A stretch of 64,000 bases of DNA, taken from Nitrosopumilus sp. (lineage in GTDB: Archaea > Thermoproteota > Nitrososphaeria > Nitrososphaerales > Nitrosopumilaceae). Shown here piece after piece: positions 36,523 to 55,197 of the stretch; within the stretch, counting starts at the first letter, position 1, and each line of letters starts with the position of its first letter. The notes under the pieces are model-generated. The model had not been told where the DNA came from and ran no database searches. It worked only from the letters and a program-made list of their open reading frames with translations. Location of the stretch: the NCBI GenBank assembly GCA_965249555.1, contig OZ252243.1, forward strand, positions 1,760,001-1,824,000, read 5' to 3'. The position numbers and the translations under genes were made by a program.

Positions 36523-37052
36523 CAGCCCACCCTTCCATTTCCAATCTTTACCTTGTCTATCTGAGTCACTGATTTTACCTCTGCAGCTGTTCCTGTCATG
36601 AATATATCATCTGCATTGTAAAGATCATCTCGTTCCAGACTGCTCTCAACAACAAAACCGCCGTTCTTCTCAATAATTTGAATAATACTGTCCTTGGTAA
36701 TTCCTGCCAATCCTCCTGCTGAAAGTGGAGGGGTTTGAATAATGTCATCTTTGACAATGAAAATATTCTCTGCACTGCCTTCTGCAACTTTGCCGTGATA
36801 ATTTAACATGATAGCCTCGTCGTATCCATTTTCTAGCGCTTCCATTCTTGCAAGAGCCGCATTTGCATAGTTTGATGCTGCTTGCACTGTTTTTATAATT
36901 GCATCAGTAATTGTTTCCTTTGAGAATTGCATCTTCATTGAGTATAATTTTGCAGATTTAAAAAATCTGTCAACATGTTCTGGCAGTCTAAAAATCGCCT
37001 ATCCCTTCAAAGTATTATAGCATCTGATCCCTTCAAAAACTGATGTCGAATA
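36522..37052 (-). pseudogene. ilvE: Branched-chain amino acid aminotransferase remnant
   Basis: YSTSVFEGIRCY, in-frame TAG at 36999-37001, FRLPEHVDRF, internal deletion (KTVQA joined to ASNYAN), EGSAENIF, GITKDS, FMTGTAAEV; truncated at both ends. Confidence 0.88.
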
Positions 37053-37053
37053 G

Positions 37054-37102
37054 GGCTCTGGTCAGTTCTGGTGATCTAGCATAGATAGTGGTCAGAAGTG
37101 AC
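37054..37102. mobile_element. Second, partial copy of the GGCTCTGGTCAG mini-element
   Basis: GGCTCTGGTCAGTTCTGGTGATCTAGCATAGATAGTGGTCAGAA closely matches the reverse complement of 33830-33885; abuts the ilvE 5' truncation. Confidence 0.6.
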
Positions 37103-37313
37103 AAATATGGATCTTCTCAAGATTGCCCGACCCCCTTGAAAAAACCCCTGGTCAGAAGTGATATAAAAAATTCTTGAATACTCCCATACGAAATCGTCTC
37201 CAACCCTACTGAGGACACTTACTAGCGTGCTTTGCTGAATCAGGACATCTCAGATATGCCTTGCATCTTATACTTTTGCTGTGTCAGTTCATGATTTTGT
37301 GTACGATACACTT

Positions 37314-38279
37314 TCAGAATTTGTTAGCATGTACCCGGATTATTGCAAGCATCCGGTCTTGCAGCTGCCACCTTTGTTTTCTTCTCTTTGCAATTCTGAA
37401 ATAGAATGATTCCATTCTTTCATCAAATCGTACTGTAGTATTTGCAGCCTCTACCATTGCGTTACGTAACCATGCAGAACCCCTCTTTGTTATTCCGCCT
37501 CCTCGGTGCACATCTGCATTCCTGTGCGATGGCGCAAGTCCTGCATATGAGACTAGTTTTTCTGCTGATGCAAATCTGCTGATGTCAACTATCTCTGAAA
37601 TTATTGTCAATGCCGTGACATAGTTTATTCCAGGAATGGTCATTAGTAGTCTTGTTTTCTCATCCTCATTACTGCAATCTTTATCTCAATTGTGTTGATC
37701 TGTTTTTGCGTCATATCTATGGTATCAAGATATGCATCCATTGCCATTCTATCAGATTAATTTCATGCAACCATCGTACTCCTTTCTGCGAGAATGTCTT
37801 TGTTGTAGGCTGGGTGTAATCATATTTTGCAAGTATTGCATAAATCATGTTTTTGTGTCTTGAGACACTTCGCACGCGATTCAGTCTGGTTCTTACCAGA
37901 CTGTATAGTCTCTATAGTATTTTTCTGGTACGAATGAGCTGTACACCATGTCTGCTCTTAGCAAGTCTGCCAATACGTCTGAATCAAGTTTGTCGTTTTT
38001 GAGCTTTGCCTGTACAATTATCTTGGTCTTTGCAGGATGTGCAAGAATTGTATCAATTCCATGGTCCTCTAGTGTGTCATGTAGTCTGATCCAATAGTTT
38101 GCAGTTGATTCGCACACTGCCTGTATGTCATTGCCATATGTCTTTTTGACGTGTTTGATAAAACCCATTATTCCATTTGTGGTATTATCAAAGCTTGTCT
38201 GCTCTAGCTTCTCTCTGGATTCCCGTTTTATTGTTGCAACACATTTCTTCTTGTGAATATTAATTCCTATGCTGATCAT
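37314..38279 (-). pseudogene. IS110 recombinase pseudogene
   Basis: GINIHK (first Asp changed to Asn), VCEST, KNDKLD; TIPGI...YAGLAP; several frameshifts; the Ser of RDSA is lost by a 3-bp deletion. Confidence 0.9.
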
Positions 38280-38309
38280 ACCATCACCTCCTTTTTGATC
38301 AAATTGCCT

Positions 38310-38465
38310 GATCTAGCGGAATACTCCCATTCACCATCTATGTGGTATTTTGTTTTCCGCTCACTTTGAGTTAGTCTGTCAAACGCCCTTGTACATGGCA
38401 ATATTCATTCAACTCTCAGGCCCAACAGTAGGTATACATCACAAGATATGAAAAAGATTTCGTAT
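38310..38465 (-). ncRNA. Predicted IS110 bridge RNA (copy 1)
   Basis: Two internal-loop hairpins (GAGTT/AACTC with inner GCC/GGC; GCGGAA/TTCCGC with inner ACCA/TGGT) whose loop strands match the target and donor junctions. Ends approximate. Confidence 0.75.
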
Positions 38466-38951
38466 AACGTCTATCAAGTCGAAATTTCCCAAAATATGTA
38501 CTGTATAGTTTTGGTGATCTGTATGGGGAAAGTTCAGCATGAAATTCAATTCAGAGAGAAGATTCACATCTCTATATTGTGCTAGGATCCCTTAACAGCA
38601 GTTGGCAAAGTCTGCATTGAGGGCTTTTTGCCAAAAGGGAGGGGGCATGGCAAAGCATCATGGAGTGAGCCCGGGCAAATTTTTACCATACGCCGAAGGT
38701 GGAATACAGAAACTAATTCATTTGATCCGTTGCAAGTGTATGGGGGTATGATGCCCAATCACCATTTTTAGGCATTGGCATTCCACTGTGAAAAATACGA
38801 TCAAAATTATGAGATCCCTTGAATCTCATTTTACAAAACTTTACACATATGCATATCTGAGCTATGCCCAAATTACTCACGATTGCCAAATTACAAGCTT
38901 AAAAAATCAACCTTTAAACCTTTTATAACTACAAATTATTTTTGATACAAT

Positions 38952-41900
38952 GTGAATAAAATGTTATTTAATGCGTTAGTGGGGGGGGGGGTTGTCCTGT
39001 TTGCCATATCACTTCTTGCAAGTGCTGAGGCTCAAGCCCCAATTGCACCTGTCCCTCCTGTAATTGAAGAAGGAGAAATCTTTTCGACAAACATTGAGAT
39101 TACATGGGGTGTGGTGGATGGTGCCACATCATACACAGTGTACAGAAACGGCGCTAACCGAGGAACTACTACTGATACATCATTCATTGATTATGGTTTA
39201 ACTCCTAATACAGAGTACACTTTTCGTGTCGTAGCACACAATAGTGCAGGCCAGACAGCAAACTCTGCTTTTTTTAAAGTATCTACCACATCTGCACCGA
39301 CCTCTTTTAGTGCCCCAGCACCAACTTATGCAGATACTCAGACGGCAATCGAGGACGGCACTATTAGTATTGAAAAGAATAATTCCAGAGACGATCAAAT
39401 AGATATATCTTTTGTACCGAAACAAGTCGGTGTATATTCTATTGAATATGGTGCTTTCAATACTGAAACTGTTAGTGTTAGTAGTGGTCAGACAGATATA
39501 CGTAAAGTTGTACCCCCAATAACGATAGGTTATGGTTTTGATCAAGATATCATCATTTCCTTTAGAGAAGGAACATCTGATCTAGTTGAAGTTGCAAGGG
39601 CACATGTAACGACTGTACCTACACCAACTCCTACACCTAGAGTAACAGATGTCACTTCGACAAGTATAACGATTGAATGGGATGCAGTGGCTGGTGCCGG
39701 ATACGATATCTTTAGAAATGGCGTGGAACAAATAACTATCACTGGTTCATCATACCATGATGATGAATTAGATCCCGAAACAACTTACACTTATACTATC
39801 AGACCAAATTACATAAACAATACTGTTGGGCCCACTTCTGCTCCATTGGTTGTAACCACCTTGGAATTACCACCTGCTACTCCAGCACTTGTACTGGGAG
39901 AAGTCACTGACACAAGTATAGCACTTTCATGGGGTGCAGTGGATAATGCCGACAGTTACACTTTGACCAGAATTGTTGCAGGCGGTAATATAGTAGTGGT
40001 ATCCAGCAATGTATTGACTGCCATTGATACTGGCCTGGCTCCTGCAACTGATTACAAGTATGTCATTGTGGCAACAAATACTGCCGGGACAAGTACTCCT
40101 TCTGCAGAGTTTGCAGCATCTACAACTGCAGCACCAATTGATACTACACCACCAGTAATCACAGTAACTCCAGAAGAAATCACTCTTGAACTAAACTCAC
40201 CTGCACCAACACTTCTTACTGGAGTCGAAACTGATGATGGCTCTGCAATTACTATATCCGGAACTGTTGATGTTACCACAGTAAACGATTACACTATCAC
40301 TTATTCCTCAACTGATGGTACAAACCCAGCTGTTGATAAAACCAGAATATACAAAGTAACTGATACCATACCACCAGTAATCACAGTAACTCCAGAAGAA
40401 ATAACTCTTGAACTAAACTCACCTGCACCAACACTTCTTACTGGAGTCGAAACTGATGATGGCTCTGCAATTACTATATCCGGAACTGTTGATGTTACCA
40501 CAGTAAACGATTACACTATCACTTATTCCTCAACTGATGGTACAAACCCAGCTGTTGATAAAACCAGAATATACAAAGTAACTGATACCATACCACCAGT
40601 AATCACAGTAACTCCAGAAGAAATAACTCTTGAACTAAACTCACCTGCACCAACACTTCTTACTGGAGTCGAAACTGATGATGGCTCTGCAATTACTATA
40701 TCCGGAACTGTTGATGTTACCACAGTAAACGATTACACTATCACTTATTCCTCAACTGATGGTACAAACCCAGCTGTTGATAAAACCAGAATATACAAAG
40801 TAACTGCAGCACCTGTCCCAATCCAGTTAAATACCATACAAATTAATCAGAATGCTAACGTTATAGATATATCATTTGTACCGCTTCTTGCCGGTACATT
40901 TGATATTTCATATGCTGGTTCAACCCCACAACCACAAACTATCGATTCGGCCCAAACAGGTACCGCTTTAGAGTTTTCGGTAACCCTCGATTCTGGTTTT
41001 GCCGGCAATGTCTGCATTGAATTTGATGGTGATGAGATTTCTTGCAGTACAATTCGGATTGAACCTGACGAACCCACACTTGTTCTCGGAGACGTTACTC
41101 ATGATACCATAGGGTTCACATGGAACTCTGTAAATAATGGCCACAATTATATTCTGACCAGAGTTATTGAGGGTACTGATAAAATAGTGGTAGAAGGCAT
41201 CAATGTACTTGCTGGCACTGATGATAACTTGGAACCTGAAACCGAGTACACATATGTAATTTCAGTGAGCACACCTGATGGTGACTTCAATGATGAATAT
41301 AGTCCGTTTTCTGTAACTACACTTGCAGCACCTGCTACTGAAACGCCGGCAATAGAGGCAAACTCTTTTGAGGTTACCAATCCGATAGATACAAACGCAT
41401 TACTTGTAGAGTTTGTAGCCTTAAAGGCAGGCACATTTACGATTACGGCAGGTGCGTTGACTGACACTGTTGATGTAACAGATACAGATGTAACAGATGC
41501 AGCAGTGAAAAGTAAACAGATAACAGTCAACCCTGAATTTGATGGCGATGTAATCCTCTCATTTGACGATGCGACAGTTGCAAGCACACCTGCATCTCTA
41601 CTTGCAATCAGGGCAGGCTCTTTTAGTTATACTGGAGATGCTGCTGGAGATGTAACTGTATCCTTTGTTCCGTTAAGGGCAGGCACATTTACAGTTGAGG
41701 CAGGTGATGCCAGCGATGACATAGTTGTTGGTACTGGCGATATAGGTAACACTGTATCATCCGATCCGCTATCCCTTGGCAATGGTTTTGATAGTACTAT
41801 TCTCATTTTATTGAATAATCATGTATATCTAAGGCCATCAGTATTGACTCTACCTGGCATCCCGACACTTGAGGTAGAAACCCCTACTCATAACAGTGTA

Positions 41901-43685
41901 ACGCTCTCATGGAATAGAATTGCCAGTGCAACAGGTTACGTACTGAGCAGAACTAGTGGCGGAGCAACAACTGAGATATCAGTCACTGGGATCTCATATG
42001 CTGATACCTTGGAACCTGAAACAACTTACATCTATTCCATAAGGACAGTGGCAGCAGCTGGAGACAGTGCCGCCTCTAATGTCGTGTCTGTAACTACACT
42101 TGCAGCACCAACTGATACAACTCCACCTGCCGCACCCGTACTTTCTGCAGGAACAACTACTGATACAACTATATCACTTTCATGGACTGCAGTGGATAAT
42201 GCCGACAGTTACACTCTGACCAGAATTGTTGATGGCATTAATGATGTTGAAGTGGCAACAGGCGATATATTGACTGCCACTGATACTGGCCTGTCTGCTG
42301 ATACAGATTACAAGTATACCATTACGGCAACAAATACTGCCGGGACAAGTGATCCTTCTGCCGAGTTTGATGCAAGGACTGATGCAGCCAATACAAACCC
42401 ATCACCTGCCGTGTACACTCTCAACGATACACCTCATGCTACTGACGGAGATAAAGTAGTTATAACCTTCACATCGTCACACACCGGTGATTTTACAATT
42501 GAATTTGATGGTGGTCGTACCATTGACTTTACAATTGATGATGCAGCCGTCCCATATATTCACACAGAAACAGTTGGGTATGATTATAATGGCAATATTA
42601 TCATTTCAATTGCCGGCGGTGCCGAGGTTGCAAGGGAATCTGTAACGACTGAACCTGAAAACCCAAAGAAAAAAGGTGGAGATTCTAATGAATGGAAAAC
42701 AAAGCCAACCTTTGGCAAACATTGGAATAATCAAGCAGTACAGCTAGTTGATGACGGCTTTGTCTTTAATGGCATGCCATTAACCATTACAAACAACTGG
42801 CACACTGACTTTAATATGACTAGCAGCATTATTGGTGATAACAATACAGTCCACATCAAAGGCTATGCAACAAATGGCCTAAAGTCCGTATCTCTATCCC
42901 TTGGAGTTCCAGAAGTTGGCCTGAAGACTAATGCAGAGTCCCACATTATAGTGAATGTAAATAGCAACTATACTAGTCCTGCAGGTTATGACATTGCAGA
43001 TATAGTCCATGAGCAAAAAGAGGGACTAGTAAATGAGGACATGACTAGCGCATCCATTGACAAAGTCAAATGTACATCATCAGATACTGCAGAGAGGTGC
43101 TTTGATGTTACCATATCATTTGTAATAATGGCACCATTATCCCATGAAGTATTGGCAATTAATGCAGTTGACAAACAACGTTACTCTACTACCACATATA
43201 TCAACGAAGGTGTAGAGTTTGTGGGAGAAGCATTACTTGCAGCAGCAACTCATGAGTTAAAACAAAAGCATGGCAACCAGAATCCGTTTGAGACCATATC
43301 ACTAACCCAGCAGGACAGACGTTACCAGGTCTGGGAGGACCAATATGGATACATATGGTCACAAAATGACTATGGCACCTGGTTGCAGATTACAAGACCT
43401 GATATGCAACAAAGAGATGATCTGCCAACAAGCGTAATGACTAGAATTCATTCAAACTTTGCAAATCTGGTAATTGATGAGCAGGATAGGGCAACCCTGA
43501 TCTTTGATAGTAAGGCAATTCAGGGAACCTTGGATGAATCATTCTCATATGATATGCCATTAAGACTGGACAGAGTATCAGATCCCGCATTGCTGGAATC
43601 ACTATCCATACAAGAGATGCTGGCCCAGGAGATGCTGTGTGACTGTATGATATATGATGACTCTGATCTTAGCTGGAATGACTAG
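38952..43685 (+). CDS. Giant secreted surface protein with fibronectin type III and Ig-like (DUF5011-like) repeats
   Basis: Signal peptide; several FN3 units (W..V.GA.SY.V...L.P.T.Y...V.A.N.AG); three DTxPPVIT Ig-like repeats; acidic, Thr-rich; non-repetitive C-terminal domain. Confidence 0.88.
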   Translation: MNKMLFNALVGGGVVLFAISLLASAEAQAPIAPVPPVIEEGEIFSTNIEITWGVVDGATSYTVYRNGANRGTTTDTSFIDYGLTPNTEYTFRVVAHNSAGQTANSAFFKVSTTSAPTSFSAPAPTYADTQTAIEDGTISIEKNNSRDDQIDISFVPKQVGVYSIEYGAFNTETVSVSSGQTDIRKVVPPITIGYGFDQDIIISFREGTSDLVEVARAHVTTVPTPTPTPRVTDVTSTSITIEWDAVAGAGYDIFRNGVEQITITGSSYHDDELDPETTYTYTIRPNYINNTVGPTSAPLVVTTLELPPATPALVLGEVTDTSIALSWGAVDNADSYTLTRIVAGGNIVVVSSNVLTAIDTGLAPATDYKYVIVATNTAGTSTPSAEFAASTTAAPIDTTPPVITVTPEEITLELNSPAPTLLTGVETDDGSAITISGTVDVTTVNDYTITYSSTDGTNPAVDKTRIYKVTDTIPPVITVTPEEITLELNSPAPTLLTGVETDDGSAITISGTVDVTTVNDYTITYSSTDGTNPAVDKTRIYKVTDTIPPVITVTPEEITLELNSPAPTLLTGVETDDGSAITISGTVDVTTVNDYTITYSSTDGTNPAVDKTRIYKVTAAPVPIQLNTIQINQNANVIDISFVPLLAGTFDISYAGSTPQPQTIDSAQTGTALEFSVTLDSGFAGNVCIEFDGDEISCSTIRIEPDEPTLVLGDVTHDTIGFTWNSVNNGHNYILTRVIEGTDKIVVEGINVLAGTDDNLEPETEYTYVISVSTPDGDFNDEYSPFSVTTLAAPATETPAIEANSFEVTNPIDTNALLVEFVALKAGTFTITAGALTDTVDVTDTDVTDAAVKSKQITVNPEFDGDVILSFDDATVASTPASLLAIRAGSFSYTGDAAGDVTVSFVPLRAGTFTVEAGDASDDIVVGTGDIGNTVSSDPLSLGNGFDSTILILLNNHVYLRPSVLTLPGIPTLEVETPTHNSVTLSWNRIASATGYVLSRTSGGATTEISVTGISYADTLEPETTYIYSIRTVAAAGDSAASNVVSVTTLAAPTDTTPPAAPVLSAGTTTDTTISLSWTAVDNADSYTLTRIVDGINDVEVATGDILTATDTGLSADTDYKYTITATNTAGTSDPSAEFDARTDAANTNPSPAVYTLNDTPHATDGDKVVITFTSSHTGDFTIEFDGGRTIDFTIDDAAVPYIHTETVGYDYNGNIIISIAGGAEVARESVTTEPENPKKKGGDSNEWKTKPTFGKHWNNQAVQLVDDGFVFNGMPLTITNNWHTDFNMTSSIIGDNNTVHIKGYATNGLKSVSLSLGVPEVGLKTNAESHIIVNVNSNYTSPAGYDIADIVHEQKEGLVNEDMTSASIDKVKCTSSDTAERCFDVTISFVIMAPLSHEVLAINAVDKQRYSTTTYINEGVEFVGEALLAAATHELKQKHGNQNPFETISLTQQDRRYQVWEDQYGYIWSQNDYGTWLQITRPDMQQRDDLPTSVMTRIHSNFANLVIDEQDRATLIFDSKAIQGTLDESFSYDMPLRLDRVSDPALLESLSIQEMLAQEMLCDCMIYDDSDLSWND
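38981..38991 (+). repeat. G11 homopolymer within the signal-peptide codons
   Basis: Eleven consecutive G in an AT-rich genome; the gene is currently in frame. Confidence 0.9.
40149..40806 (+). repeat. Three near-identical 222-bp tandem repeats (74-aa Ig-like domain)
   Basis: Units start at 40149, 40371 and 40593; only one synonymous difference seen (ATC/ATA). Confidence 0.95.
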
Positions 43686-43918
43686 GTTCCATCATATCTT
43701 TTGAGAATTATATGTAATTATGGTGATTGGGTATCTACTACCCCTAAGATTATTATGGAATATTTCACAAAAACAATGGATGGATTTTGTATCATTTGCA
43801 AAAACAATCCCTGATGAATTATTAATACAATTCCTGGAATCAAAATATGACAAGAATCCTTCCCGTACTTTTTGCAAAAATAAAACTCTCTGTACCAAAG
43901 ACAGAGACAAAATGAGAT

Positions 43919-43998
43919 GGCATATCTGAGATGTCCTGATTCAGCAAAGCACGCTAGGAGGTGTCCTCAGTAGGGTTGGAGACGATTTCGTATGGGAG
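43919..43998 (+). mobile_element. Solo IS110 end fragment (inverted relative to the two full copies)
   Basis: 80 bp matching the reverse complement of 37181-37260 and 52956-53035, ending exactly at the AG (CT) core. Confidence 0.85.
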
Positions 43999-44046
43999 AA
44001 CCTTACAATATAACCAGTTTTAATATCATATAGGATAACAAAATGT

Positions 44047-52421: not shown

Positions 52422-52516
52422 ACCCCTTCATTCCTTTTTGATGTATAGTTACAGTTCATTTCATTACACTTTTGATTTTAATATAATTAATTGTGTATAA
52501 TACTTAAAACAATTTA

Positions 52517-52900
52517 CTAGTTATTTCTGTGATTTTGGAAACATTCTCTACAATATACTGGTCTGTCGTCTTTTGGCTTGAATGGTATCTGACAATCATT
52601 TCCACAATCGCCACATTTTGCGTCAAACATTTCTCGTGGTCTGTCATCTCGTCTGCCATAGCTGCCACCACCAGATCTTCCACCATAGCTGCCACCACCA
52701 GATCTTCCACCATAGCTGCCACCACCAGATCTTCCACCATAGCTGCCACCACCAGATCTTCTTGGTGCTGGTTTATGATTTTGGAAACATTCTCTACAAT
52801 ATACTGGTCTGTCGTCTTTTGGCTTGAATGGTATCTGACAATCATTTCCACAATCGCCACATTTTGCGTCAAACATTTCTCTATCTCTATCAAATGGCAT
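52517..52900 (-). CDS. Double CxxC-x17-CxxC domain protein with RSGGGSYGG linker
   Basis: Two copies of REMFDAKCGDCGNDCQIPFKPKDDRPVYCRECFQNH around four Gly-rich repeats. Confidence 0.88.
   Translation of the reverse strand: MPFDRDREMFDAKCGDCGNDCQIPFKPKDDRPVYCRECFQNHKPAPRRSGGGSYGGRSGGGSYGGRSGGGSYGGRSGGGSYGRRDDRPREMFDAKCGDCGNDCQIPFKPKDDRPVYCRECFQNHRNN
52530..52881. repeat. Identical 106-bp direct repeats enclosing four 27-bp tandem repeats
   Basis: 52530-52635 equals 52776-52881; unit CCATAGCTGCCACCACCAGATCTTCCA repeated about 4 times between them. Confidence 0.92.
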
Positions 52901-53088
52901 GTCTTTCTAAAAAGTGGTAAAATCGGGTTGTACTTAAACTATTGTAAAATTGATTCTCCCATACGAAATCATCTCCAACCCTACTGAGGACACCTCCTAG
53001 CGTGCTTTGCTGAATCAGGACATCTCAGATATGCCTTGCATCTTATACTTTCGTTGTGTCATTTCATGATTTTGTGTACGATACACTT

Positions 53089-54057
53089 TCAGAATTTGTT
53101 AGCATGTACCCGGATTATTACAAGCATCCGGTCTTGCAGCTGCCACCTTTGTTTTCTTCTCTTTGCAATTCTGAAATAGAATGATTCCATTCTTTCATCA
53201 AATCGTACTGTAGTATTTGCAGCCTCTACCATTGCGTTACGTAACCATGCAGAACCCCTCTTTGTTATTCCGCCTCCCCTGTGCACATCTGCACTATCCC
53301 TGTGCGATGGTGCAAGTCCTGCATATGAGACTAGTTTTTCTGCTGTTGCAAATCTGCTGATGTCAACTATCTCTGAAATTATTGTCAATGCCGTGACATA
53401 GTTTATTCCAGGAATGGTCATTAGTAGTCTTGTTTTCTCATCCTCATTACTGCAATCTTTATCTCAATTGTGTTGATCTGTTTTTGCGTCATATCTATGG
53501 TATCAAGATATGCATCCATTGCCATTCTATCAGATTAATTTCATGCAACCATCGTACTCCTTTCTGCGAGAATGTCTTTGTTGTAGGCTGGGTGTAATCA
53601 TATTTTGCAAGTATTGCATAAATCATGTTTTTGTGTCTTGAGACACTTCGCACGCGATTCAGTCTGGTTCTTACCAGACTGTATAGTCTCTATAGTATTT
53701 TTCTGGTACGAATGAGCTGTACACCATGTCTGCTCTTAGCAAGTCTGCCAATACGTCTGAATCAAGTTTGTCGTTTTTTAGCTTTGCCTGTGCAATTATC
53801 TTGGTCTTTGCAGGATGTGCAAGAATTGTATCAATTCCATGGTCCTCTAGTGTGTCATGTAGTCTGATCCAATAGTTTGCAGTTGACTCGCATACTGCCT
53901 GTATGTCATTGCCATATGTCTTTTTGACGTGTTTGATAAAACCCATTATTCCATTTGTGGTATTATCAAAGCTTGTCTGCTCTAGCTTCTCTCTGGATTC
54001 CCGTTTTATTGTTGCAACACATTTCTTCTTGTGAACATCAATTCCTATGCTGATCAT
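53089..54057 (-). pseudogene. IS110 recombinase pseudogene
   Basis: GIDVHK, VCEST, KNDKLD and RDSA intact, but the same frameshifts as copy 1. Confidence 0.9.
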
Positions 54058-54087
54058 ATTATCACCTCCTTTTTGATCAAATTGCCT

Positions 54088-54243
54088 GATCTAGCGGAAT
54101 GCTCCCATTCACCATCTATGTGGTATTTTGTTTTCCGCTCACTTTGAGTTAGTCTGTTGGACGCCCTTATACATGGCAGTAACCATTCAACTCTCAGGCC
54201 CAACAGTAGGTATACATCACAAGATATGAAAAAGATTTCGTAT
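54088..54243 (-). ncRNA. Predicted IS110 bridge RNA (copy 2, different target guides)
   Basis: Same scaffold as copy 1, with substitutions concentrated in the target-loop strands (54154-54161, 54178-54185). Ends approximate. Confidence 0.7.
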
Positions 54244-54324
54244 AACGTCTGTCAAGTTGACAATGCTTTGTTTCACAATTTTCCCCTGTAGTGCCGAGAC
54301 TTGGAAAATATCTTAGCAATATGA

Positions 54325-55197
54325 TTATGTATTATCTAACTCCTCATTCCCTAACATAACTAAAGAGTGATTATTTGATTGTAGTAGGAGTAATTCTCCT
54401 GTCATTTCAGGCTTGTTACAGTATAATTTCTTATAATAATCTGCATATTTTTCATGTAAATCATAAATTTTATCTTCCAGTACCTCATCATGATCAAACA
54501 AAGCAATATGGTTTTTTACGAGGAAATTACGGTGCATTGGATACCCATGTGATAAGAATTTTTCAGTAAATGTTTTTATCATTTTATCTTTATTTTCTAT
54601 TTTTTTCTCTGTAAGTATTTCATCTAAATATTGTTTACATGATTTTTCTGATGCTCTATATGCACCTATTAACAATGCAGGTATTTTATCTGTTAAATTT
54701 AATTTTACTAAAGGATCCTGAACCCCTTCTATGAAACTTATAGATTCTTTAATAGAATGTGCAGGTACAAATGAATTTGTTTGTGGATCTCTAACCTGAG
54801 GATCAAGAGGTCCTAATTCACCAGCCTTACAAACAATTAATTCATCAGCACCAAGAGCAATCAATGTTGCAGCACTCTTAGCATAGAAAGGCACTATTAC
54901 AGTAATTTTATCTGCATAACTTTTAAACAAATTTAGAATTTTATATGCTGAATTAATGTCTCCACCACATGATTCTAAAAGAATATCCAAATGATCCAAG
55001 TGTTTGAGTTTACGTAGTATTTTGTTTAATGATACGCTAGTTTGAAAACTGATGGATTGGTGACATATGACAACTAAAACTTTTGATTTGCGTATTTCTT
55101 CTATTTCTTTGATAAGTGTTTTAGTTTCATCTAATGTACAACCGTTTGAGTCTTGGTTTTGTGATGGTTTTTGTTCAGGATTTTTTGAGTCGCTCAA
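54325..55197 (-). CDS. SDH-family ClpP-fold serine proteinase
   Basis: LES.GG, VPFYAKSAATLIALGADE, LGPLDPQ, SHGYP (Ser-Asp-His). Confidence 0.85.
   Translation of the reverse strand: MSDSKNPEQKPSQNQDSNGCTLDETKTLIKEIEEIRKSKVLVVICHQSISFQTSVSLNKILRKLKHLDHLDILLESCGGDINSAYKILNLFKSYADKITVIVPFYAKSAATLIALGADELIVCKAGELGPLDPQVRDPQTNSFVPAHSIKESISFIEGVQDPLVKLNLTDKIPALLIGAYRASEKSCKQYLDEILTEKKIENKDKMIKTFTEKFLSHGYPMHRNFLVKNHIALFDHDEVLEDKIYDLHEKYADYYKKLYCNKPEMTGELLLLQSNNHSLVMLGNEELDNT

Follow-up and report, generated by a model that had tools for sequence, protein, structure and literature searches.

How did an insertion sequence come to lie at a site that fits only one of the two target guides in its own predicted RNA? 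The question is raised by one of two sister copies of an IS110-family element in the window, i.e., the whole stretch of 64,000 nucleotides analysed here, which is part of a Nitrosopumilus sp. genome of one contig (2.23 Mb). The two copies and the features needed to place them are as follows (LE stands for the left end of the element and RE for its right end).

52956 to 54248, minus strand: copy 2, IS110-family element of 1293 nt (LE position 1 is 54248; the RE-terminal AG is 52957-52956)
53089 to 54057, minus strand: broken DEDD transposase gene of copy 2, in three ORF pieces
54249 to 54256, minus strand: LE-side flank of copy 2, CTTGAC, with the core AG (CT on the plus strand)
52951 to 52955, minus strand: RE-side flank of copy 2, AATCA
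54234 to 54243, minus strand: sub-terminal inverted repeat of 10 bp, ATACGAAATC, with its partner GATTTCGTAT at 52961-52970, read from the sequence
37181 to 38470, minus strand: copy 1, sister IS110-family element, within a host repeat at the site CTTGAT-AG-TATTCA
38400 to 38407 and 38376 to 38383, minus strand: guides of copy 1, UGAAUAUU and UUUGACAG, respectively
43919 to 44000, plus strand: RE remnant (last ~80 nt of the RE), flank AACCTTAC

The boundaries of copy 2 were assigned from the alignment with copy 1 and from the genome-wide LE and RE junctions. Both copies are read as flank-AG/ACGTTATACGAAATC ... GATTTCGTATGGG-AG/flank (slashes at the element boundaries), and both have the 10-bp sub-terminal inverted repeat; on the plus strand the flanks of copy 2 are TTGATT-CT and CT-GTCAAG. 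The 309-aa open frame of the best copy in the genome (P0001) matches Pfam PF01548 (E = 7.7e-19) and PF02371 (E = 7.2e-26), and by these domain matches the element is an IS110-family insertion sequence, with a DEDD RuvC-like N-terminal part (PF01548) and a Transposase_20 C-terminal part (PF02371). The transposase gene is in three pieces in copy 1 as well as in copy 2, and four frameshifting deletions (1, 10, 7, and 10 nt, relative to the best copy) are common to the two. Empty paralogous sites of the host repeat of copy 1 read ...CTTGAT-AG-TATTCA... with a single AG, and occupied sites have AG at both junctions; insertion is site-specific, with the core dinucleotide AG common to both junctions and without further target duplication. 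No empty site for copy 2 was recovered by synteny: of the 30 other genomes of the genus, just one has the neighbouring gene (54328-55197), at 32% identity.

Several observations concern the surroundings of these elements. The host repeat of copy 1 (37050-37180 and 38471-38540 of the window) has five empty copies elsewhere in the genome, two of which have the altered left arm TGATTGGT-AG. The RE remnant closes a repeat of ~1.36 kb (42641-44001, plus strand), which consists of the last ~1.04 kb of a gene for a 1577-aa surface protein (38952-43685), the region downstream, and the ~80-nt remnant. Ten further sites in the genome have this repeat, whole or for its greater part; in four cases, as in the window, the homology reaches the RE terminus and ends there, and the right ends are then followed by AACCT-, ATTCA-, or GACTA-type flanks, of which AACCT and ATTCA are typical targets of the family. 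Rearrangements at a solitary right end may account for this pattern. Next to copy 2, a small gene (52504-52900, minus strand) encodes two CxxC...CxxC zinc-ribbon-like repeats with GGSYGGRS repeats between them, and its DNA contains a direct repeat of 117 nt.

The noncoding left end (~190 nt) lies upstream of the transposase gene, and a two-loop RNA is predicted there. Its parts in copy 2 are the following.

54084 to 54199, minus strand: predicted bridge-RNA core, outer stem GCCUGA (54199-54194) to UCAGGC (54089-54084), with the target loop and the donor loop inside
54178 to 54185, minus strand: target-loop 5' guide strand UGGUUACU (equivalent of the IS621 LTG), UGGUU to the RE-side flank, A unpaired, CU to the core
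54163 to 54177, minus strand: inner hairpin of the target loop, GCC...GGC, with a U private to copy 2 at 54169
54152 to 54161, minus strand: target-loop 3' guide strand UCCAAC-AG (RTG equivalent) followed by the handshake dinucleotide AC (54153-54152), AC being the first two LE bases
54130 to 54134, minus strand: donor-loop 5' strand AAAAC, pairing with LE positions 3-7 (GTTAT)
54100 to 54109, minus strand: donor-loop 3' strand AAUGGGAG, matching the RE end and the core, with the handshake dinucleotide CA (UA in copy 1)

The predicted fold of copy 1 is likewise an outer stem around two internal loops, with one hairpin in each. Homologous left ends were collected from Nitrosopumilus, Nitrosopumilaceae, and Nitrosotenuis MAGs (with protein identities of up to 85%) and from other genomes of the genus. 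In an unfitted MAFFT alignment of 17 sequences, 93.9% of the cells of the five helices pair, compared with 28-44% when the partners are slid. Both sides are altered in 9 of 25 pairs, and none of 500 shuffles was as good; in helix 3, the inner hairpin, 100% of the cells are paired, and G-C is replaced by A-U in three sequences. Since one U.G pair is retained in 16 of the 17 sequences, the transposase-sense strand is taken as the RNA strand. Such compensatory changes, together with the tracking of guides and flanks in relatives and the variation within the family (both below), bear out the original prediction of a bridge RNA with the guide strands as its hypervariable part, and on this comparative evidence the predicted left-end RNA is a genuine IS110-type bridge RNA. 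With Rfam, zero matches were obtained in the whole window at gathering scores, and only chance-level matches in 53950-54350 at E values up to 10; a sigma-70 promoter scan is not relevant to an archaeon, and a terminator was not found. Misfolding of the copy-2 RNA was also considered: CCAACAG can pair with CUGUUGG upstream of it, and the target-loop stem is predicted with a probability of 0.03, as compared with 0.98 in copy 1. This candidate was dropped because equally low values are predicted for five further copies (6 of 13 are below 0.15) and for relatives with long open frames, e.g., L028 and L030, so that the prediction does not discriminate.

The guide code was read from the relatives. 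In these, the target-loop 3' strand repeats the six bases that precede the left end, together with AG, as in TGTATG, CGTAAG, and ACCGGC (6/6 each); in two sister copies, GCGAA stands against GCAAA. Over 20 loci (L024 and L026 were excluded because the flank was missing, and L016 as a duplicate of L011), 97 of 120 positions of the 3' guide agree with the LE-side flank, compared with 53.2 +/- 5.6 after shuffling (0 of 20,000 shuffles as good). The 5' strand pairs, through its first five bases, with the five next to the right end (GGGUU/AACCC, GUAAC/GTTAC, GUAAA/TTTAC, ACGAA/TTCGT, and CUAUU/AATAG), and over the 14 loci with a recognisable right end 61 of 70 positions agree, compared with 34.7 +/- 5.0 (again 0 of 20,000). 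Note that the loci in both permutations include paralogues of one genome, and the significance is thus overstated. The 5' strand has two formats, NNNNN-CU-U in sister clades and NNNNN-A-CU in the clade of this genome, the A of the latter being without a partner. In the donor loop, AAUGGGAG corresponds to the right end together with AG; AUGGGAG reads exactly like the RE terminus (...TATGGGAG) and does not vary in relatives. Three independent variants show covariation of the donor-loop 5' strand with LE positions 3-7 (AUGGU/GCCAT, ACGGGG/CCCTGT, and AAAGC/GCTAT; here AAAAC/GTTAT), and core pairing was not seen for this strand. For most sequences, the target-loop handshake AC is the same as the first two bases of the left end; the donor-loop handshake agrees with the RE-side flank in some (UU-TT, AA-AA, UA-TA) and not in others (CA-AA, CU-AA).

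At the level of the family, the target-loop strands are thus predicted to pair, and in the alignments covary, with the target arms and the core, and the donor-loop strands are predicted to pair with the two ends of the element around the core. In the mechanism that we propose, the target-loop 5' strand (five bases, an unpaired A, and CU) would pair with the core AG and the next five bases outside the right end; the 3' strand, as a copy of AG and the six bases on the left-end side, would pair with the opposite DNA strand; the two handshake bases after the 3' strand would match the start of the left end; and the donor loop would read the element's own ends in like manner. In a related genome (L028:1178-1430), an element is inserted exactly in the 3' guide segment of the target loop of a sibling (flank ...GAGAGTTGAACTATTCTTACCCCGCATGAGGGTGACCGGC-AG/), a natural consequence of the 3' guide having the sequence of the target arm. 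The left end also holds TA-CT-GTTGG, matching the new 3' guide UCCAAC, and a nested insertion at that point was found at none of the 26 LE junctions in this genome.

Pairwise alignment of the two copies gave exactly eight differences within 54088-54256, as originally counted. Three lie in the target-loop 5' strand (UGAAUAUU in copy 1, UGGUUACU in copy 2, 54178-54185), three in the 3' strand (UUUGACAG and UCCAACAG, 54154-54161), one in the loop of the inner hairpin (C in copy 1, U in copy 2, 54169), and one immediately 3' of AAUGGGAG in the donor loop (U in copy 1, C in copy 2, 54101); two more differences, at 54059-54060 beside the start codon, lie outside this interval. All RNA stems, the outer ones included, are identical in the two copies, and CU/UU and AG stand at the core-pairing positions, as originally described. 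The probability of at least six of eight differences falling in 16 of 169 positions is 6.8e-6 (hypergeometric), and 6 of the 16 guide positions differ, compared with 22 of the other 1274 positions of the element (Fisher p = 4e-7). The original prediction was accurate in these respects (six of the eight differences in the two guide strands, unchanged outer stems, a CT core kept in both guides, the flanks of copy 2, and frameshifts common to both copies), and the enrichment of substitutions in guide over scaffold positions that it had asked about is present.

That the differences are artefacts of assembling collapsed repeats is a natural suspicion, as dozens of near-identical pieces of the family exist and assemblies go wrong in such places. 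Contigs of three other public runs, which may be from the same or a closely related strain, nevertheless reproduce the copy-2 alleles as follows.

54000 to 54212: X19 record 1, copy-2 alleles with zero differences
54136 to 54199: X20 record 12, copy-2 alleles with zero differences
54160 to 54310: X24 record 24, copy-2 alleles with zero differences, the unique flank being joined to the 5' guide and to the first base that is changed in the 3' guide

Moreover, these alleles are seen again in further copies and further genomes, and an artefact is extremely improbable.

The genome holds dozens of pieces of the element, with 26 left-end junctions and 36 right-end matches. For the analysis of left ends, 23 copies were aligned over 136 nt (one diverged and two truncated copies were dropped); for the right ends, 30 of the 36 with 22 distinct flanks were used, six with 84% identity or less being dropped. 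Variation in the left ends clusters at positions 64-67 plus 70 and at 89-93; 9 of 16 guide positions are polymorphic, compared with 9 of 84 in the scaffold (p = 1.5e-4), and pi is 0.205 in the guides and 0.013 in the scaffold. It is at the guide positions that the family is hypervariable, the scaffold being almost constant. Six 5' guide alleles (UGAAUAUU, UGAAUACU, UGGAUACU, UGGUUACU, AGGUUACU, and UUAUUACU) and six 3' guide alleles (UUACAC, UUUGAC, UUUGAU, UUUAAC, UUUCAC, and UCCAAC) are found in 11 combinations among the 23 copies; most are one substitution from a neighbour, and UCCAAC and UUAUUACU are two steps from the nearest. The UUACAC guide stands at TTACAC-AG in six copies with three distinct upstream flanks (14 nt), the UUUGAU guide at TTGAT-AG, and the UUUGAC guide at TTGAC-AG; these three alleles are better cases of guide and target changing together than copy 2 is. 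Right-end flanks are mostly AACC(T), fitting A/UGGUU, or ATTCA, fitting UGAAU, both in the unpaired-A register. As the site of copy 1, AG-TATTCA, fits UGAAUA contiguously without an unpaired A, the register is not strict and both forms occur.

Taken over this genome, resident guides do not fit their own flanks better than shuffled ones: the 3' guides agree at 65 of 96 positions, compared with 61.6 +/- 3.9 (p = 0.23), and the score of the 5' guides is 16, compared with 18.0 +/- 1.3. Relatives, a number of them with long open transposase frames, do show guide-flank agreement, and this genome does not; a fit at a single copy therefore says little, and guidance in trans has to be considered. Four related genomes, with only 1-5 matches each to the element, added little. 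Short derivatives were also observed, in which LE positions 1-136 (the target loop, without the full donor loop) are joined to unrelated sequence, at genome C1 positions 373195, 547111, 1498340, 1867481, and 2109975 (also 92149 and 1913914); five of them agree with one another in flank and in guide pair (UGGAUACU/UUUAAC).

All eight full-length copies in the genome have a broken transposase. The best copy has a stop at codon 18, and its C-terminus is probably frameshifted as well, judging from the comparison with relatives. The deletions are spread among the copies as a mosaic and show microhomology of 2-6 nt, and some of the shared ones may be recurrent events at these microhomologies. When the four-gamete test was applied to the informative SNP sites of the seven full-length copies that are not identical, 650 of 1225 site pairs failed it; since this occurs at 2-5% divergence, exchange between copies is pervasive, in agreement with the gene conversion between siblings that had been proposed. 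A PHI-type test, in which the incompatibility of neighbouring sites (0.532) was not lower than the permuted value (0.531), did not map the exchange tracts. Two further observations on these copies may be added. One full-length copy (C1:1239168-1239851) lies inside the transposase gene of a different IS110-type family (about 30% identical; the point of insertion is in the sequence ...AEIADID); elsewhere in the genome, that other family has copies with long open frames, the longest being 373 aa. In addition, the transposase gene of the best copy (L001) contains at element positions ~715-740 the sequence GTTGAC-AG-AATGG, which is like a target of the family, and a 10-nt deletion common to most copies ends just before it.

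Against this background, the guides of copy 2 were compared with its insertion site. Its 5' guide UGGUU forms four Watson-Crick pairs and one G.T pair with the flank AATCA (TGATT-CT on the plus strand), the best 5'-guide fit (4.5/5) among the eight full-length copies; the same G.T wobble is found at the same position in the relative L024, and the chance probability of a 5/5 fit with wobble allowed is about 0.03-0.06. The target originally predicted for copy 2, TGGTTA-CT-GTTGG, needs correction in its 5' guide, which is one base off register because contiguous pairing was assumed, whereas in relatives the five bases are followed by an unpaired A and CU. It is by the unpaired-A register that copy 2's own 5' guide fits the flank and only its 3' guide is discordant: UCCAAC agrees with the flank CTTGAC at two of six positions, i.e., there is no fit. 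The allele UUUGAC agrees with this flank at five of six positions with a U.G wobble at the remaining one, and the original remark that the LE-side flank fits a copy-1-type guide was right in this sense. The combination of UUUGAC with GGGUU is the loop of the relatives L024, L027, L041, and L044, of which L027 has an open frame of 358 aa; UGGUU together with UUUGAC is present in no extant copy among the 23 LE copies of this genome. The only other carrier of UCCAAC in this genome is a 5'-truncated sister fragment near genome position 86100, the closest backbone to copy 2 (10 differences in 984 nt). A search for the copy-2 loop at matching sites, suggested at the outset, found CCAAC-AG at none of the 26 LE junctions in this genome.

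The explanation toward which we lean, at somewhat better than even probability, is that copy 2 was inserted under a UGGUU/UUUGAC loop and that its 3' guide was changed afterwards. Copies 1 and 2 are decayed, and they belong to an IS110-family insertion sequence that has expanded in a Nitrosopumilaceae-type archaeon. Copy 2 would have been inserted at CTTGAC-AG-AATCA with a loop carrying UGGUU and UUUGAC, a pair close to the GGGUU and UUUGAC of related elements, one of which has a long open transposase frame; a later change of the 3' guide to UCCAAC, by three transitions or by short-tract exchange with a sibling, would fall in the lineage common to copy 2 and the fragment near 86100. This order of events is our inference; the left-end RNA with its guide code, the series of alleles, the mosaic make-up of the copies, and the decay of all of them are shown by the data. 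A different history is that a defective UCCAAC element was excised and inserted by the transposase and bridge RNA of a sibling (UUUGAC with a GGUU-type 5' guide), so that the guides of copy 2 never selected its site. The frameshifting deletions common to copy 2, the sister fragment, and copy 1 would then mean that the lineage went on spreading in a defective state; across this genome, guides and flanks are uncoupled, and yet they agree in relatives, several with long open frames; and bridge RNA or seekRNA with transposase is described as acting in trans in the experiments reported in PMC11208160 and PMC11187229. Such guidance in trans would, however, leave the fit of copy 2's own 5' guide a coincidence, GGUU-type guides being present in only 5 of 23 LE copies; the required guide pair is in no extant copy of this genome; and the shared deletions could also have spread by exchange or have recurred at microhomologies. 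Because its own 5' guide fits and GGUU-type guides are in such a minority, we favour insertion followed by change, by about four to one, over guidance in trans, which is unlikely but is kept alive by the genome-wide uncoupling and the shared lesions. The original proposal, a defective element mobilised in trans and/or a guide loop swapped between siblings, thus stands as to defective copies and pervasive exchange, and its mobilisation in trans is less probable than insertion before the change.

Two readings leave UCCAAC as the guide in use. Copy 2's own RNA might have accepted a site at which the core and the arm of the matching 5' guide were enough, the UCCAAC arm being mismatched; for IS621, the preprint 10.64898/2026.08.31.748434 describes a match to the core and one arm as sufficient in vitro and as accounting for many off-target events. 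The flank CTTGAC-AG, however, fully matches the common 3' guide UUUGAC, for an arbitrary flank a coincidence of ~1 in 1000, so that the site is a regular target of the family, and we regard a half-match as very improbable. Alternatively, UCCAAC may be a working new specificity for CCAAC-AG sites whose products have since been lost or truncated, which is the snapshot of a bridge RNA acquiring a new target in the original prediction. The neighbouring allele UCCGAC exists in another genome, with one carrier (L049) at CCCAAC-AG; the left junction of the sister fragment, where its target would be read, is deleted; and CCAACAGAACC and CCAACAGAATC, with three occurrences each in the genome, are unoccupied. 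On the other side, the absence of CCAAC-AG from the LE junctions means that nothing here points to an insertion directed by UCCAAC, both carriers are defective, and L048, also with UCCGAC, is at the non-matching flank GTTAAC. This reading we consider improbable, although less so than a half-match.

The pair was also compared with described systems. The bridge RNA of IS621 (IS110 group) was reported by Durrant et al. 2024 (PMC11208160) and Hiraizumi et al. 2024 (PMC11208158), and such RNAs were discovered through the covariation of natural guides with targets. As far as these texts describe it, IS621 is alike in its DEDD transposase with PF01548 and PF02371; in an RNA encoded in a long left end upstream of the gene, with two internal loops and an inner hairpin in each; in that, per loop, the 5' strand reads like one arm together with the core, and the 3' strand is the complement of the core and the other arm, with two bases in the handshake position after it; and in a CT/AG core at both junctions, with CT on the strand mimicked by the LTG, an LTG-like 5' strand, and an RTG-like 3' strand. 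The differences from the same descriptions are that the RNA-making strand of IS621 reads LT-CT-LE...RE-CT-RT, whereas here the core on that strand is AG and the LTG-like strand reads the RE-side flank (inverted polarity); that here an unpaired A lies between the five 5'-guide bases and CU (sister clades having NNNNN-CU-U); that the donor-loop 5' strand is without visible core pairing; that a 10-bp sub-terminal inverted repeat is present; and that the host is an archaeon. A cassette inverted relative to the recombination site can be compatible with the same mechanism. The inverted polarity and the unpaired A set the element apart from IS621 as its text descriptions have it, and other described subgroups may already share them. 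IS1111-group elements are described as having sub-terminal inverted repeats of 7-17 bp and a guide RNA downstream of the transposase gene; the present element has a 10-bp repeat but an upstream RNA, i.e., mixed features.

For the seekRNA of IS1111/IS110 elements, the text of Siddiquee et al. 2024 (PMC11187229) describes, similarly to the present case, an RNA from the noncoding region that selects the target, a site proper to each group of close relatives, action of RNA and transposase in trans, and natural re-direction by replacement of the target-detecting part (ISEc11 and ISXne4, transposases 72% identical). In contrast to that account, redirection here is at a finer scale, with copies 95-99% identical in one genome, a single-step allele series, and a family that is wholly defective. 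Half-match recombination of IS621, in the account of Xie et al. (bioRxiv 10.64898/2026.08.31.748434), offers a way to occupy a site matching one target-loop arm, as copy 2 now does; unlike in that account, the non-matching arm of copy 2 matches a sibling allele perfectly, which argues for a full-match insertion followed by change, or for the RNA of a sibling, and not for a half-match. Archaeal IS110 recombinases have already been catalogued; a literature search found no paper joining IS110, bridge RNA, and Nitrosopumilus-type archaea. The pair is a clear natural example of a known mechanism and does not reveal a new one; its useful contribution is in new details of a known kind of system, namely, a series of alleles within one genome, a defective swarm whose guides and flanks have come uncoupled, an inverted polarity, and an unpaired A.

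A bolder and rather doubtful reading is that the family is a combinatorial library of target-loop cassettes, in which guides evolve ~15-fold faster than the rest of the element, are reshuffled, and are used communally in trans in two registers given by the unpaired A. If this were true, guides 17 nt apart would be reshuffled by very short-tract exchange or some directed process, a swarm of mostly defective elements would jointly explore new sites, the unpaired A by the core would let one guide use both AG-ATTCA and AG-TATTCA, and the UCCAAC of copy 2 would be a cassette in transit. Returning to insertion followed by a change of the 3' guide, the reading preferred for copy 2, the family provides bridge-RNA guide alleles as a natural series within one genome, and several of these (UUACAC, UUUGAU, and UUUGAC) stand at targets that they match. 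For engineers, it offers a compact archaeal subgroup with a core polarity inverted relative to the RNA strand, a five-base 5' guide, and an unpaired base tolerated by the core. In nature, guide positions turn over while the scaffold stays, and in a large family resident guides and sites uncouple.
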